NCBI GenBank assembly: GCA_963746845.1
Contig: CAVVCZ010000008.1
Location: 1 to 64,000 of the forward strand
Direction of reading: 5' to 3'
Length of the DNA: 64,000 nt
DNA from: an uncultured Chloroflexia bacterium
GTDB taxonomy: Bacteria; Chloroflexota; Limnocylindria; Limnocylindrales; CSP1-4
Position numbers and translations under genes: made by a program. Shown here in pieces: positions 9,287-54,503 of the stretch. Each line of letters starts with the position of its first letter. Positions within the stretch are counted from its first letter, which is position 1. The notes under the pieces are model-generated. The model had not been told where the DNA came from, ran no database searches, and saw only the letters and a program-made list of their open reading frames with translations.

Positions 9287-10255
9287 TCAGTTACCCAGGT
9301 AGGAGCCCGTCACGCCGGACACGACCGCCTCGAGAAGGCCCGGGCTTGTGCCCGGGTCCACGACGCGCAGCCCGGCCTCGGACGTGCCCGGCCGGGCATC
9401 CCGGACCGTCGTCGCGGTCGTGCCGTCCCCGGTCCCGGATCCATCACCCGATCCGGTGCCGTCCGTCGCGCCTGCTCCGGGGTCACCGGTGTCCTCCGGA
9501 CCCGAGGCGATCGGCGGCGTAAGGGTCGGGGCGGTGTCGGCCGACGGCGACGCGGACGGCGGAGCCACGGCGGGCTTCGGGGTCGGCTTGGGCTTCGCGG
9601 CCGGCTTCGGGGTCGGGCGCGGCGTCACGACCGGCTTCGGCTTCGGCTTCGCGGTCGGCTTCGGGGTCGACGGCGGGCTCGTCGCCCCGCACCGGTCGGC
9701 GAACAGGACCGTCCACATCTTCTTGCCGTCGGGGCCCTTGTAGGCGCCGATCCCGATCACGTCCCAGGCCTTCCCGAGGATGTTCGCGCGGTGGCCGGAC
9801 GAGTTCATGAATGCCTGCTGGATCTCGGCCGTCGCCTGGTCATCGGGATACGTGTTCCAGCCGATGTTCTCGCCGGCGATCTTGTAGCAGTAGCCCTTCG
9901 AGTCGAGGATGTTGAACACGCTGTGGCCGTCGGGCGGGATGCTGTGGCTGAAGTAGTCCCGGACGATCATGTCCTTGCTGCGCGCGCGGGCGATCGTGGT
10001 CAGGGTCGAGTCCACCTTCAGCGACTTCAGCCCGGCCGAGGCGCGGGCCTGGTTCGTCAGGCTCACGAGCTGCTTCTCCGAGCTCGAGCTGAACGAGTTC
10101 GGCGACCACGCAAGGGTCGGGCTCGGCGACGCCAGCAGCCCGATCGAGGTCAGCCCGAACGCCAGCGCGACCATGACGATGAACCGGCGCGGCTCGCGTC
10201 GGACGTCCGGCCGGAGGTCGATCTGCGGGTTCGCTCGGGCGGGGGCGAGGATCAT
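9287..10255 (-). CDS. Secreted CAP/SCP-domain protein with Pro/Lys-rich linker
   Basis: Signal peptide, LTNQAR, YFSHS, GENIG, FMNSSGHRANIL, IGIG; PKPTPKP repeats. Confidence 0.88.
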   Translation of the reverse strand: MILAPARANPQIDLRPDVRREPRRFIVMVALAFGLTSIGLLASPSPTLAWSPNSFSSSSEKQLVSLTNQARASAGLKSLKVDSTLTTIARARSKDMIVRDYFSHSIPPDGHSVFNILDSKGYCYKIAGENIGWNTYPDDQATAEIQQAFMNSSGHRANILGKAWDVIGIGAYKGPDGKKMWTVLFADRCGATSPPSTPKPTAKPKPKPVVTPRPTPKPAAKPKPTPKPAVAPPSASPSADTAPTLTPPIASGPEDTGDPGAGATDGTGSGDGSGTGDGTTATTVRDARPGTSEAGLRVVDPGTSPGLLEAVVSGVTGSYLGN

Positions 10256-10356
10256 CGACGGTTCGGTCTCGTGCGAATCGCCGGCTGGGGATCCGGCGTC
10301 GTTCGACCGTAGACACGGACCGCCGCGGAGTCCGCGGGGCGATGGTCCCGAGACCG
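10256..10356 (-). ncRNA. Candidate structured 5' leader, copy 1 (shared with the M23 gene leader)
   Basis: Closing stem CGGTCTCG/CGAGACCG, two internal hairpins, junction GTGTCTACGGTCGAACG, 3' TTCGCACGA. Confidence 0.5.
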
Positions 10357-10460
10357 GGGTTCACGGGTACCAGCGCCCGCACCGCACCGCCGCGGACGTC
10401 AGCCGACCGGTTCCCTCTGCCCCGTGCCGCACCGGACCGACCACCGGTCCGGGCGCGGGT

Positions 10461-11813
10461 TCAGCCCCCGAGCACCTCGGTGAAAGCCCGGTACGACGGC
10501 TCGATCGGGCCGGCGAGGCCATCGCCGCCCGCTCCCTCGTCGCCCAGGGCGAACCGGCGCGCGTCCGGCGTCTTCACGCCGTTGCCGGACAGGATCGCGA
10601 CGACCTCGTCGCCGTCCCGGATGACCCCGCGAGCCCGGGCCGCCGCAACCGCGGCGACGGTCACGCCGCCGGCGGTCTCGACGAAGATGCCCTCGTTCGC
10701 AGCCGTCCGGCGGATGGCATCGGCCGTGGCCGCGTCCGGGATCCCCTCGATGGAGCCGCCGGTCCGGCGCGCGAGGTCCAGCGCCTCGCCTCCGTCAGCG
10801 GGCGAGCCGATCGCGAGCGAGCGGACGATCGTGTCCGGTGCCCGGACGGGGCGGATCTCGTCGACGCCCTCGGCGAAGGCCGTCGCGACCGGGGCGCAGC
10901 CGGCCGGCTGGCCGCCGACGAACCGGACGGTCTTCCGCTCCACCAGCCCGATGTCGGCGAGCTCCTCGAAGCCCTTCGCGATCTTCGTGAACATCGAGCC
11001 CGAGGCGATCGGCCCGACGAGGACATCCGGCAGGCGCCAGCCGAGCTGCTCGGCGACCTCGTAGGCAATGGTCTTGCTGCCCTCGGCGTAGAACGGCCGC
11101 AGGTTCACGTTGACGAACGCCCAGCCCTCCTCGTCGGCGATCTCGAGGCTCAGGCGATTGACCTCGTCGTAGGTGCCGTTCACCCGGACGACGGTGGCGC
11201 CGTAGCCCAGGGCGTGCTCGACCTTGGCCGGCTCGAGATCCGCCGGGACGAAGACGAAGGCGCGCAGGCCCGCAGCCGCCGCGGCCGCCGCCGTCGCTCC
11301 GGCGAGGTTGCCGGTCGAGGCGCAGGCGAGGGTGTCGAACCCGAACTCCACGGCGCGAGCCGTCGCGACGGCCACGACCCGGTCCTTGAAGCTGAGCGTC
11401 GGGTTGCGCGTGTCGTCCTTGAGATGGAGCGTCGTGCCGGTCCCGAGGTCCAGGTCGCGGGCAAGACGCGGGGAGCGGACGAGGGCTGTCGAGCCGACCG
11501 CGAGACCGCGCTCCGGGGCATGCTCGACCGGGAGCAGCTCGAGGTAGCGCCAGATCCCGGGAGCCCGGGCGGCGATCGCCTCGTGGCTCAGGGCCGAGCG
11601 GGCCACGTCGTAGTCGTACACGACCTCGAGCGGCCCGAAGCACGCCGGACACACGAAGGCCGGACCGATGGCCTCGAGATGCCCGCAGGCGCGACAGCGC
11701 AGGCCCTGGACATGGGAGCGACCCGACGTCGGGAGCTCGGGCGACGCGCCGGCGCCGTCCGGGGTCGCGGGGCGGGCGGGGGTTTCGAGGGTCATGCCGA
11801 TCGTCATCTCCAT
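10461..11813 (-). CDS. thrC: Threonine synthase-like PLP enzyme with N-terminal Zn ribbon (start may be 11795)
   Basis: CRACG..CPAC, GIWRY.ELLP, NPTLSFKDR (PLP Lys), CASTGNLA, NVNLRPFYAEGSKT. Confidence 0.88.
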   Translation of the reverse strand: MEMTIGMTLETPARPATPDGAGASPELPTSGRSHVQGLRCRACGHLEAIGPAFVCPACFGPLEVVYDYDVARSALSHEAIAARAPGIWRYLELLPVEHAPERGLAVGSTALVRSPRLARDLDLGTGTTLHLKDDTRNPTLSFKDRVVAVATARAVEFGFDTLACASTGNLAGATAAAAAAAGLRAFVFVPADLEPAKVEHALGYGATVVRVNGTYDEVNRLSLEIADEEGWAFVNVNLRPFYAEGSKTIAYEVAEQLGWRLPDVLVGPIASGSMFTKIAKGFEELADIGLVERKTVRFVGGQPAGCAPVATAFAEGVDEIRPVRAPDTIVRSLAIGSPADGGEALDLARRTGGSIEGIPDAATADAIRRTAANEGIFVETAGGVTVAAVAAARARGVIRDGDEVVAILSGNGVKTPDARRFALGDEGAGGDGLAGPIEPSYRAFTEVLGG

Positions 11814-11880: not shown

Positions 11881-11987
11881 CCCTTATCTCGCAGGAGGAC
11901 CTGCCCGGATTTGGCACCGTGCCGGCATTCCTGCCGGTCGGTTGTCGGGCTTCACAGGGCCGGTCCCTCCACCACTCTTGATAAGAG
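11881..11987 (-). ncRNA. SAM-I (S-box) riboswitch
   Basis: Minus strand CTCTTATCAAGAG-TGGTGGAGGGACCGGCCCTGTGAAGCCCGACAACC...CGGTGCCAAATCC...GAGATAAGGG matches the S-box consensus. Confidence 0.95.
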
Positions 11988-41038: not shown

Positions 41039-41344
41039 GCCCGGAAGAGTGATGCCGCCGTTCGCGCGACGTCAATGCCTCGGGCGCGGCGTGAGACCGG
41101 GCTCCGGTCCGGCCCGGGCTCCATCCGGCCCGGAGCCGCACCCGCTCCGATCCCGCGCCGTTTCTGTCGTTCGTTCACGTGGGGGTCGCTAGTCGGCGCG
41201 CAGGGCGTTCGCGGGCCGCACGGGCGAATGACGGTGTTACGATCCGCCCACTCGAGCCGGCTCCTCGTACGGGGTCCGTCCACGACGCCTTCGGCGGCTG
41301 GATGCAGGGACCCGCGATGCCCCGGTGGAGTGAGGTGTGCGCGC

Positions 41345-42463
41345 ATGTCGACCGTGACGTTCGAGCACGTCACCAAGAAGTATGGTGACGTCCTCGCGGT
41401 GAACGACCTGAACCTTGCCATCAACGACGGCGAGTTCATGGTCCTGGTCGGACCCTCGGGCTGTGGCAAGACGACCAGTCTCCGGATGATCGCCGGCCTC
41501 GAGGAGATCTCCTCGGGCGAGCTGAAGATCGGCGACAAGGTCGTCAACGATGTGGCCCCGAAGGATCGCGACATCGCGATGGTCTTCCAGAGCTACGCGC
41601 TCTACCCGCACATGACGGTCCGCGACAACATGGCGTTCGGGCTGAAGCTCCGGAAGCTGCCGAAGGCGGACATCGAGAAGCGGGTCAACGAGGCGGCCGG
41701 CATCCTCAGCCTCGAGAAGCTCCTCGATCGCAAGCCGAAGGAGCTGTCCGGCGGCCAGCGCCAGCGCGTCGCGCTCGGCCGGGCGATCGTCCGCGAGCCC
41801 GCGGTGTTCCTCATGGACGAGCCCCTCTCGAACCTCGACGCCAAGCTGCGCGTCCAGACGCGGGCCGAGATCGCCCGTCTCCACCAGCGGATGGGGACGA
41901 CGTTCGTGTACGTCACCCACGACCAGGTCGAGGCGATGACGATGGGCACGCGGATCGCCGTGATGAGCGACGGCCTGCTCCAGCAGGTCGGCACGCCGCA
42001 GGTCCTGTACGACACCCCCGCCAACCGGTTCGTCGCCGGGTTCATCGGCAGTCCGTCGATGAACTTCGTCGACGTGACGTTCGACAGCTCGGGTGGGACG
42101 GCGAAGTTGATCGGTCCCGGCAACTGGACCGCGAACCTGCCGAATCGGCTGGCGACGGCCGTCGGCGCGACCAGCGGCCGCAAGCTCGTCGCCGGGTTCA
42201 GGCCGGAGCACCTCGACCTCGATCCGGTCGAGGGCGACCAGGTGACCATCCCCGGCCACGCGGACGTCGTCGAGTACCTCGGCAACGAGGAGCTCCTCCA
42301 CGTCACGGCGGCCGAGAAGGACATCGTCGCGATCGTCGGCTCCGACCACCGGGTGAAGCCGGGCGACGTGCTCCAGATGATCCTGCCGCTCTCGAAGCTC
42401 CACCTGTTCGATGCGGAGACGGGCCTGAGCCTGACCTCCGATCGCGAAGCGATGGCCGCCTGA
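41345..42463 (+). CDS. ugpC: Carbohydrate ABC transporter ATPase (MsiK/UgpC/MalK family)
   Basis: GPSGCGKTT, VFQSYALYPH, LSGGQRQRVALGRA, DEPLSNLDAKLR, FIGSPSMN, TOBE tail. Confidence 0.93.
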   Translation: MSTVTFEHVTKKYGDVLAVNDLNLAINDGEFMVLVGPSGCGKTTSLRMIAGLEEISSGELKIGDKVVNDVAPKDRDIAMVFQSYALYPHMTVRDNMAFGLKLRKLPKADIEKRVNEAAGILSLEKLLDRKPKELSGGQRQRVALGRAIVREPAVFLMDEPLSNLDAKLRVQTRAEIARLHQRMGTTFVYVTHDQVEAMTMGTRIAVMSDGLLQQVGTPQVLYDTPANRFVAGFIGSPSMNFVDVTFDSSGGTAKLIGPGNWTANLPNRLATAVGATSGRKLVAGFRPEHLDLDPVEGDQVTIPGHADVVEYLGNEELLHVTAAEKDIVAIVGSDHRVKPGDVLQMILPLSKLHLFDAETGLSLTSDREAMAA

Positions 42464-52871: not shown

Positions 52872-54254
52872 CTAGAGGAACAGCCGCGGGTTGACGAAGT
52901 CGTCGTTGAACCGGACGGCCCAATGGAGGTGCGCCCCGGTCGAGTGGCCCGTGTTGCCCTCGTGGCCGACAACCTGGCCGGCGTTGACATGCGTGCCCGT
53001 GTGGGCGGGGCAGTTCGGGGTCATGTGGGCGTACCAGGTCTCGAGCGACTGGCTGTGGGCGACGATCACGATCCACGCCGGGTCGGCCCCGTCCGCGTAG
53101 TTCCAGCCGCAGTAGACGACCTCGCCTGCCCCGGACGCGCGCACCGGAGTGCCGTACGGGCTGACGATGTCGATCCCCTGGTGGAAGTGGGCGCAGGTGC
53201 CGAGCGGAGGCTCGAAGACGACGCCGGTGCAGCCGAAGTCCTGGCTCACGGCGCCCGACATCGGCCACTTCAGCGTCCCGTTGTATTGGGACGGGATGTT
53301 GCCGTGGGCGTATTGCTGGGCGACGAGGTCGCTGATCTTCTGGGCGAGCGCGTGCTTGGCGGCGTCCGTGATCCTGAGCGCCTTGGCGAGGTCCTTCTTG
53401 TTCCGGGCCAGCCGTGCGTAGGCGGCGTTCTGGATCGCGAGCGCGCTCTTCGTCGCCTGCTCGAGGCGACGGAGCTCGGCCTGCGCGGCCTTCAGCGCCT
53501 TGAGCTGCTTGTCCAGCTTCGCCTTCTGGGCGGCGGTCTGGACCCGCAGGTCATCGGTGGCCGAGCGCATGTCCTCGACGGTCTGCTCGACCGCCGCGAG
53601 GGTCTGCTGGTCCTGGACGATCTGGATGGCGAGGGCCTTGTCCTGCTCGCTGACGTCGATCGCGTAGCTGACGTCGGACAGGACGTCCGTGAACGATTCG
53701 CCCGAGAGGAAGGTCTCGAGCATCGACGTGCGATCCGTGTCGTACGCCTGGCGGAGCCGGTCGGCGAGGATCGCCTTGCGCTCGGCCAGCTGCCAGCGCA
53801 TCCGCATCTCGTTGATCTTGATCCGTGCGAGCTGACTGTCGAGGAGGTTCAGGCTGGCGACCTGGGCCAGGTAGTTCAGCCGCACGACCGCGATCTTCCG
53901 CGCCATCGTGTTGATCGAGGCCCGGACCGAGACGAGATCGGCGTTGATCCCGTTGAGCTGGCGCTTCGTCGCGGCGATCTCTTGGCCGAGATCGGCCTGG
54001 AGGGCGTTGATCTGGTCGACCTGCGCCTTCTGGTCCTTCAGCTGCTGGGCGAGCGCGGTCTGGCGGGCTCGAGCGTCGGAGAGCTCGTCCGCGCCGACCG
54101 GTGACGCGGGCGCGCCGCCGATCCCGACGATGAGGGACGCGAGGACGAGCAGGGGGACGAAGCGCGCACGGCCGAGGACAGGTCGTCGGCCGATCCGGCC
54201 GGTGCCCTGGCTGCGTGACGTGTCGGGGGCCGAGTGGGCGCCTGGGCGCTTCAC
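52872..54254 (-). CDS. Secreted coiled-coil M23 peptidase (EnvC/CwlO-like murein hydrolase)
   Basis: Signal peptide, long coiled coil, FHQGIDI, TWYAHM, GNTGHSTGAHLHW, NPRLFL; GTG 54254 is the last canonical start before the signal peptide. Confidence 0.88.
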   Translation of the reverse strand: MKRPGAHSAPDTSRSQGTGRIGRRPVLGRARFVPLLVLASLIVGIGGAPASPVGADELSDARARQTALAQQLKDQKAQVDQINALQADLGQEIAATKRQLNGINADLVSVRASINTMARKIAVVRLNYLAQVASLNLLDSQLARIKINEMRMRWQLAERKAILADRLRQAYDTDRTSMLETFLSGESFTDVLSDVSYAIDVSEQDKALAIQIVQDQQTLAAVEQTVEDMRSATDDLRVQTAAQKAKLDKQLKALKAAQAELRRLEQATKSALAIQNAAYARLARNKKDLAKALRITDAAKHALAQKISDLVAQQYAHGNIPSQYNGTLKWPMSGAVSQDFGCTGVVFEPPLGTCAHFHQGIDIVSPYGTPVRASGAGEVVYCGWNYADGADPAWIVIVAHSQSLETWYAHMTPNCPAHTGTHVNAGQVVGHEGNTGHSTGAHLHWAVRFNDDFVNPRLFL

Positions 54255-54392
54255 CGGGGCATCGTCATCGTGCGAACAACTCCGTTGGCGTTGCCCCGTT
54301 CTCACCAGACGCGCTGGGGGCGCGGGTGTCGGCAGCGACGCCGATCGTTCCGCCCCGACAGGGCACCCTCAGGACGATGACCGACTGCCCGG
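54255..54392 (-). ncRNA. Candidate structured 5' leader, copy 2 (shared with the CAP gene leader)
   Basis: Starts just after -10 TATGAT (54394-54399); closing stem GGGCA..GTCATCGT/ACGATGAC..TGCCC; junction GCGTCTGGTGAGAACG; 3' TTCGCACGA. Confidence 0.55.
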
Positions 54393-54503
54393 CATCATAC
54401 CTCGGGCTGTCCAACCTATCAGCCGTCCGGAGGCCCCGGGACCCTGACGATGGTCCCAAGTCGTGCCGGGACGCCGCTCGCCACGGCAGCGCCCGGACAA
54501 CCA

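Follow-up and report, generated by a model that had tools for sequence, protein, structure and literature searches.

A conserved structured leader with a putative translationally coupled mini-uORF upstream of a murein hydrolase gene in Ca. Limnocylindrales (Chloroflexota)

The M23 peptidase gene in the window, which is the whole 64-kb stretch of DNA analysed in this study and belongs to a genome designated G000 (other genomes are numbered G, and loci L), is preceded by a conserved leader with a covarying secondary structure and a very short upstream reading frame, to which translation of the gene is probably coupled. An initial annotation had placed one structured RNA ahead of both this gene and the gene for a CAP-domain secreted protein, and in doing so probably merged two separate things, as the CAP leader appears non-homologous to that of M23 and the two genes seem to be linked only at the promoter. 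The case for one riboswitch-like element common to both is not supported by the sequence comparisons made here, and the methodological lesson is that a resemblance between two copies in one G+C-rich genome dissolved when orthologs were compared. The product of the M23 gene matches Pfam PF01551 (E 2.6e-24) and PF24568 (E 2.8e-07), and is predicted to be a peptidase with a PcsB-type coiled coil and an EnvC/PcsB-like architecture. Murein hydrolases of the EnvC/PcsB type need tight control, and we know of no account of how uncultured soil Chloroflexota exert it. The conserved leader and its presumably coupled mini-uORF offer a concrete, testable handle on hydrolase control in these bacteria. The coordinates of the features discussed are collected in Table 1.

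Table 1. Features of the M23 and CAP loci, with positions in the window.
Feature	Position	Strand	Basis or remark
M23 peptidase gene	52872..54254	-	Start GTG 54254
uORF AUG ACG AUG CCC CGG UGA	54251..54268	-	UGA overlaps the M23 start GUG 54254-54252
GGAG, Shine-Dalgarno-like	54280..54283	-	10-15 nt before the conserved start in 81/87 leaders
Long bipartite hairpin P3/P3b/P4	54269..54346	-	Helices 2-5 of the covariation test
Hairpin P2, arms AUCGUCCUG ... CGGGGCGG, conserved loop GGGUGCCC	54349..54378	-	Covariation and RNAalifold
M23 leader RNA, match of model R1	54248..54386	-	84.4 bits, E 5.6e-17
TATGAT, proximal -10 box of the M23 leader (predicted)	54394..54399	-	TAnnnT signature in orthologs
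Promoter box GGGACCATCG upstream of M23 (predicted)	54448..54457	-	TAGGTT 54418-54413 (TAnnnT) 39 nt downstream
CAP-domain secreted protein gene	9287..10255	-	Start ATG 10255; Pfam PF00188, E 4.2e-15
Predicted short CAP 5' UTR (~44 nt)	10256..10299	-	Conserved in orthologs; 5' end inferred from the -10 box
CAP UTR hairpin CGCCGG-AUCCCCA-GCCGGCG	10298-10279	-	Followed by UUCGCACGAGACCG (10277-10264)
TACGGT, likely -10 box of CAP, core of the 'conserved linker' of the initial annotation	10306..10311	-	Ortholog spacing
Promoter box GGGACCATCG upstream of CAP (predicted)	10340..10349	-	Conserved in CAP orthologs

Orthologs of the M23 gene were gathered from 18 genomes of the genus and through full-length BLAST matches of the leader from the other genera of the family, and the leader, which is about 135 nt long, was strongly conserved in all of those collected. 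A covariance model (R1) was built from 32 M23 leaders. Of 80 public M23 loci, 72 have a match to it ahead of the gene at E < 1e-3, and a profile search of G000 with this model gave one strong match only, the M23 leader itself. A second match, at C6:115884-116004 with 25.4 bits and E 0.01, falls within the gene of a LuxR-type response regulator and was rejected as spurious. The leader is present in 35 of the 44 genomes sampled from family f1 (Ca. Limnocylindrales, Chloroflexota), and in none of 106 genomes from four sister families (f2 0/6, f3 0/49, f4 0/50, f5 0/1). In the small-genome sister family f2 the M23 gene follows directly after pepA, with a short spacer containing GGAGG and no leader, in all 11 orthologs inspected (11 of the 16 f2 genomes with an M23 match). 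Copy number is always one (36/36 genomes with a match, and likewise G000), and the leader is upstream of the M23 gene in every fetched locus whose neighbouring gene was examined. The initial annotation had proposed to look at the genes downstream of such matches, and these belong to the M23 gene family only; recurrence ahead of several functionally linked genes, a mark of riboswitches, was not seen for this single-copy element. That it occurs once per genome, next to a single gene family and within a single bacterial family, speaks for a leader specific to its gene. It appears to be new, structured and confined to this lineage, and to precede an EnvC/PcsB-like hydrolase gene.

The ydaO-yuaA (c-di-AMP) riboswitch, RF00379, is found upstream of rpf and cell-wall hydrolase genes, and the M23 leader resembles it in being a structured 5' leader before a murein hydrolase gene in a high-G+C bacterium. 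It differs, however, in its architecture, in occurring once per genome and in having no match to this family, either at E <= 10 in G000 or at E <= 1 in eight diverse leaders. No family of Rfam 15, c-di-AMP and c-di-GMP riboswitches included, was found at either the M23 or the CAP leader of the window at the gathering score or at E <= 10; 17 orthologous loci gave no match at the gathering score, and the eight diverse M23 leaders nothing relevant at E <= 1. The claim of an undescribed element stands for the M23 leader, which is conserved, structured and absent from Rfam, but not as something shared with CAP. A literature search on riboswitches in Limnocylindria, and on general motif catalogues at the level of titles and abstracts, found no description of the M23 leader. 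It is similar to the lineage-specific leader motifs that they list (Weinberg 2007, 2010, 2017; the 26-genome catalogue of 2021) in being a covarying 5' UTR motif of one gene family, but is unlike them in its absence from Rfam 15 and its restriction to a single Ca. Limnocylindrales family among those searched.

The fold of the leader, consisting of P2, P3, P3b and P4, was tested on an alignment of 88 leaders (A5). In P2, GUCGUCCUG pairs with CAGGACGGC, in P3 GGCGGGCG pairs with UGCUCGC, and in P3b CCG pairs with the CGG of ACGGAG, and P4, a variable hairpin, has the clearest compensatory changes, all five of its pairs being changed on both sides. In P2, 92% of cells across the 88 leaders are paired and 6 of 9 pairs have two-sided changes, and pair 127-257 of P3 is CG in 69 leaders, UA in 6 and GC in 5. 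Over the whole fold 91.3% of cells are paired (shuffled mean 86.4%), 18 pairs have two-sided changes (shuffled mean 8.0) and the covariation score is 0.181 (shuffled mean 0.112; slid controls <= 0.038), with none of 500 shuffles reaching the observed value in any of five measures, although the covariation counts come from an alignment fitted to the model, which favours the model. High conservation and a high G+C content in most of the helices leave many pairs with variation on one side only. When run on this alignment, RNAalifold retains P2 and P3b only and pairs 5' GCCGG with CUCGC instead, and alternative pairings exist for the helices of the M23 leader. Taken from the alignment, these figures indicate a conserved secondary structure with covariation above that of the controls.

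Several further pairings were considered, and two of them rejected. The P2 loop GUGCCC might form a pseudoknot with GGGCGU in the 5' arm of P3, but the loop variants GUGGCC and GUGCCA are uncompensated (by eye, A5), and a long-range GGGUG/CACCC pairing is likewise contradicted by the uncompensated variants CAGCC, CAACC and CUCCC. The 5' GCCGG could also act as an anti-sequestrator by pairing with CCGGC in the P3 arm; this fits most of the sequences, but there is no two-sided change and L090 contradicts it. In three loci, G000, G016 and L098, an insert carries CGGGGCA (54292-54298, minus strand), complementary to UGCCCCG (54255-54261) at the end of the uORF. This UGCCCCG stretch sits just before GUG 54254, and the same three loci share the unusual uORF codons AUG CCC, which looks like a lineage-specific extra helix over the putative reinitiation site.

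The initial annotation had described both genes as having no Shine-Dalgarno sequence, which is incorrect for M23, where GGAG is located 11 nt before the conserved AUG 54268 at which the uORF starts. The GGAG lies within a conserved ...AACGGAGUUUGCUCGCACGAUGAC... and its distance to the start is 10-15 nt in 81 leaders and 12 nt in 48 of them; a spacing of 11-14 nt is long for a Shine-Dalgarno sequence. The 3' end of the 16S rRNA is canonical (...CACCUCCUUUCU), with the anti-Shine-Dalgarno intact. A start codon is present at the aligned uORF position in 87 of 88 leaders (ATG 75, GTG 9, TTG 3). The stop of the uORF overlaps the start of the main frame, as NUGA or UGAUG, in 61 of the 88, the aligned start codon opens the M23 ORF itself in 13, the uORF is short but the M23 frame could not be set within the locus in 9, and a uORF with no overlap was found in 4. 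The uORFs are mostly of 5 codons (65 leaders), with others of 6 (5), 9 (2), 8 (1) and 3 (1), those of 3, 5 and 6 codons all retaining the overlap, and the stop is TGA in 73 of 74. The peptide encoded is only loosely conserved (M-T/P-S/T-P-x). The uORF changes length in frame without losing the overlap, and one clade begins M23 at this very codon; both observations argue for a genuine start codon and for coupling, and pairing within the closing stem proposed by the initial annotation does not explain these features. The geometry is that expected of uORF-coupled translation by termination-reinitiation, and suggests that the M23 gene is translated in this way. In the clade of L174, L161, L170, L155, L168, L175, L162 and L177 the 'uORF' start is in frame and opens the M23 ORF, so the uORF arrangement elsewhere looks derived from, or interconvertible with, a normal start with a Shine-Dalgarno sequence and AUG.

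The leader is probably transcribed from the TAnnAT -10 box 7 nt upstream of the conserved 5'-AGCCGG, and folds into the local hairpin P2 with its conserved loop and the long bipartite P3/P3b/P4. On the 3' arm of the latter are the GGAG and the stretch that separates it from the conserved start of the mini-ORF, which usually has five codons and ends in a UGA overlapping the start of M23 (GUGA or UGAUG). With no Shine-Dalgarno of its own, M23 would most likely be translated by ribosomes just finishing the uORF, and the folding of the leader may set how often the uORF is initiated. Ensemble folding gives modest support to sequestration: the probability of being unpaired is somewhat lower than in controls for the spacer (0.33 vs 0.40) and for the AUG (0.35 vs 0.45), whereas the Shine-Dalgarno-like site is not more hidden than in controls (0.40 vs 0.31).

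Overlapping stop and start codons (UGAUG or AUGA) couple translation in trp and many other operons, and regulatory mini-uORFs and leader peptides are a known kind of control. The arrangement at M23 is similar to such translational coupling in having a Shine-Dalgarno-like site with a start, a very short ORF, and a stop overlapping a gene start that lacks a Shine-Dalgarno, but it is dissimilar in that the upstream frame has only 3-6 codons and is located inside a conserved structured leader. Unlike known leader peptides, the uORF peptide is loosely conserved, and no stalling or attenuation signal was identified.

At the CAP gene, a TAnnnT hexamer is located 38-39 nt after the GGGACCWTCG box in 21 of 23 orthologs, which include L061 from the unpublished genome G010, on which nothing rests. 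The hexamers are TACGGT (9), TAGGGT (5), TACGTT (4), TAGCGT (2) and TACCTT (1). At M23, TAnnnT occurs within 20 nt upstream of model position 1 in 84 of 88 leaders and ends 5-9 nt before it in 81 of 88, the hexamers being TATGAT (36), TATCAT (16), TACCAT (7), TAGAAT (7) and others, with the middle positions varying. A TAnnnT at fixed distance with a variable middle is the signature of a -10 box, and both genes are accordingly predicted to have one, as part of a sigma-70-type promoter. The observation of the initial annotation that the M23 leader begins just after a -10 box is upheld, TATGAT 54399-54394 standing 7 nt before the start of the conserved leader. As the linker assigned to the CAP structure is itself the TAnnnT box 38-39 nt from GGGACCWTCG, the 5' half of that structure is most likely promoter DNA, which would read TGGTACC, 16 nt, GGGACCWTCG, 28-29 nt, TAnnnT. 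In 22 of 23 CAP orthologs a spacer of exactly 16 nt separates the TGGTACC (10366-10372, minus strand) from the GGGACC box that follows it, and the remaining ortholog has no TGGTACC. The two elements together make an imperfect inverted repeat (GGTACC / GGGACC), a possible regulator site. A helix between CGGUC of the CAP hexamer and GACCG was also considered, with one compensated case (L053) and several uncompensated ones, and the -10 box was preferred. In orthologs L048-L070 the CAP UTR hairpin (10279-10298, minus strand) has a conserved C-rich loop, ACUCCCCA, resembling an anti-Shine-Dalgarno.

In G000 as a whole, TAnnnT after NGGACC[AT][TA][CA]G peaks at offsets of 38-40 nt, with 8 sites against 0-3 at any other offset, and the 8 include M23, CAP, C1:87972, C1:84618, C7:97896, C9:78008 and C4:1256529. 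At two of these sites the start codon comes 7 nt past the hexamer, and the mRNAs, which encode a UDP-glucose/GDP-mannose dehydrogenase and a 481-aa membrane protein, are probably leaderless; the box is also found ahead of an ABC ATPase and other genes. Among the 88 M23 leaders, 39 have the box with TAnnnT at 38-40 nt, which in most cases makes up a second promoter, 19-48 nt ahead of the point where the leader begins. The box and its spacing to TAnnnT define a candidate regulon or promoter class, in a lineage without genetics, and the link between M23 and CAP appears to sit here, at a box at fixed distance from the -10, and not in RNA. Regulators of the WalR/MtrA type control hydrolases like PcsB, CwlO or RipA, and the present case is similar in that a coiled-coil hydrolase and secreted envelope genes share a DNA motif, here GGGACCWTCG at -51 to -42. 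It differs in that the motif also precedes the UDP-glucose/GDP-mannose dehydrogenase, the ABC ATPase and others.

The reading of the initial annotation was that one riboswitch-like three-way junction, with a closing stem, variable hairpins and conserved linkers, controls both M23 and CAP. The strings that it quoted are indeed present on the minus strand, as CGGTCATCG ... GCGTCTGGTGAGAACG ... TTCGCA-CGATGACG, 8 nt and GTG 54254 at M23, and as CGGTCTCG ... GTGTCTACGGTCGAACG ... ATTCGCA-CGAGACCG, 8 nt and ATG 10255 at CAP. The gap from TTCGCA to the start codon is exactly 16 nt at both, and a closing stem of 7-8 bp is possible in both leaders. Yet model R1, which recovers the M23 leader in relatives, does not detect the CAP leader: there was no match in G000 at E <= 10, the best score in 1 kb around the CAP leader with filters off was 10.3 bits and not colinear with the alignment proposed, and nothing was found at the leader position of 19 CAP-ortholog loci. 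The linkers described as conserved are not kept in the orthologs of either gene. At M23 the linker GTCTGGTGAGAACG sits within an insert (54309-54287) seen only in G000, G016 and L098, GTCT..GAACG is missing from M23 orthologs outside the closest relatives, and elsewhere in the orthologs the position is the 3' side of a variable hairpin, while at CAP the linker is the degenerate TAnnnT hexamer, in which the variation at the middle positions is uncompensated. The closing stem of M23 (GUCGUC with GAUGAC) has no pair changed on both sides in the ortholog alignment, and its 3' strand varies against a fixed 5' strand, with 11 U-C mismatches at pair 19-277; the 5' strand is instead the 5' arm of P2, for which the mean duplex energy is -13.0 kcal/mol against -8.1 for the closing stem. 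The 5' arm proposed for CAP, CGGTCTCG (10356-10349, minus strand), is specific to G000 and upstream of the likely promoter, where it abuts the box; orthologs conserve the box but not the 8 nt that precede it. No consensus long-range stem was found by RNAalifold in 22 CAP upstream regions (-2.65 kcal/mol). In neither stretch does the MFE fold improve on those of shuffles (z -0.56 and -1.49). Since the pattern GTCTN{4,8}GAACGN{12,40}TTCGCA was itself abstracted from the two copies, the low number of matches expected by chance is a circular argument; the pattern has one extra match in G000, in coding sequence by inspection, and matches in 14 of 40 relatives, none like either leader by inspection. 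On this evidence a junction shared by the two genes is extremely improbable. What the two do have in common at the RNA level is UUCGCACGA followed by GAC, which M23 and CAP orthologs alike keep at a distance of 16 nt from the start. On the M23 side the P3 arm and the start of the uORF explain it, an explanation that does not extend to CAP. That YCGCACGA(U)GAC, 8 nt before both starts, is a shared functional site, such as a target of an sRNA or RNA-binding protein in otherwise unrelated leaders, would agree with its conservation and equal distance, but seems decidedly unlikely, as a start codon is lacking at that place in CAP, other G000 genes show no enrichment of the motif ahead of them, and of 55 genome matches followed by a long ORF only M23 and CAP read as 5' leaders, the rest looking like coding sequence. 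By our own estimate for 70% G+C, the chance of an identical 9-mer at equal offset from the start codon is ~1.5e-3 per gene pair, so that a few such pairs are expected among the ~60 genes of the window, and the resemblance of CAP in G000 may be a short motif plus chance.

For the M23 leader taken alone, a new ligand-sensing riboswitch would have P2 and the loops and junctions of P3/P4 form an aptamer, with the ligand freeing or hiding the Shine-Dalgarno, spacer and AUG of the uORF. Covarying helices that flank near-invariant unpaired stretches (the P2 loop GGCAGUGCCCG, GUAG and AACGGAGUUUG) and the lack of an Rfam match would be in agreement with this, as would the two mutually exclusive pairings possible for GUCGUC, with GGACGG in P2 or with GAUGAC by the start. 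The second of these, however, does not covary, ensemble folding shows little sequestration of the Shine-Dalgarno, and the gene context points to no ligand. A riboswitch class is usually found with several genes of one pathway, and the restriction of this leader to one copy, one gene family and one bacterial family makes a riboswitch unlikely. We are similarly doubtful of a broader proposal, that the leader represents a new class of RNA sensor, of a metabolite or a protein, gating the coupled mini-uORF, with a separate undescribed regulator acting on the GGGACCWTCG box; if true, the sensor would determine how abundant a divisome-type murein hydrolase is in Ca. Limnocylindrales, and the box regulator would co-ordinate M23, CAP and polysaccharide genes. 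Conservation might also reside in the DNA, as operators or promoter elements, or in a small protein gene, since the region adjoins two promoter-like elements and much of it is invariant, so that pairing cannot be told from sequence constraint there. This is very improbable, given that P4 stays a hairpin while its sequence and length change, with two-sided changes at 5/5 pairs, that in 81-84 of 88 leaders the -10 box comes before the element, and that differences in leader length are not multiples of 3. A possible ORF from the -10 box is, by inspection, not kept in frame, the small ORF starting in TATGAT being out of frame in G017 and G002. A gene-specific leader with uORF-coupled translation at M23, and a link to CAP at the promoter only, is the reading we consider probable.

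In ten soil metatranscriptome runs only 5-6% of the words of the stretch are present. In four of these runs, contigs from relatives (90-95% alike) cover 54311-54458 and run on at both ends with no 5' end, and may represent read-through or DNA. The GGTGCGGT repeats upstream of both genes were dismissed as a shared signal, with 180 copies in the genome against ~290 expected by our own estimate from base composition. Two known RNAs were also recognised in the window. A SAM-I riboswitch (RF00162, 69 bits) at 11881-11987 on the minus strand is upstream of a 450-aa ORF (10461-11813) that terminates just ahead of the CAP promoter region, and a malK-III RNA (RF03009, 85.1 bits) at 41253-41347 on the plus strand runs up to an ATG.
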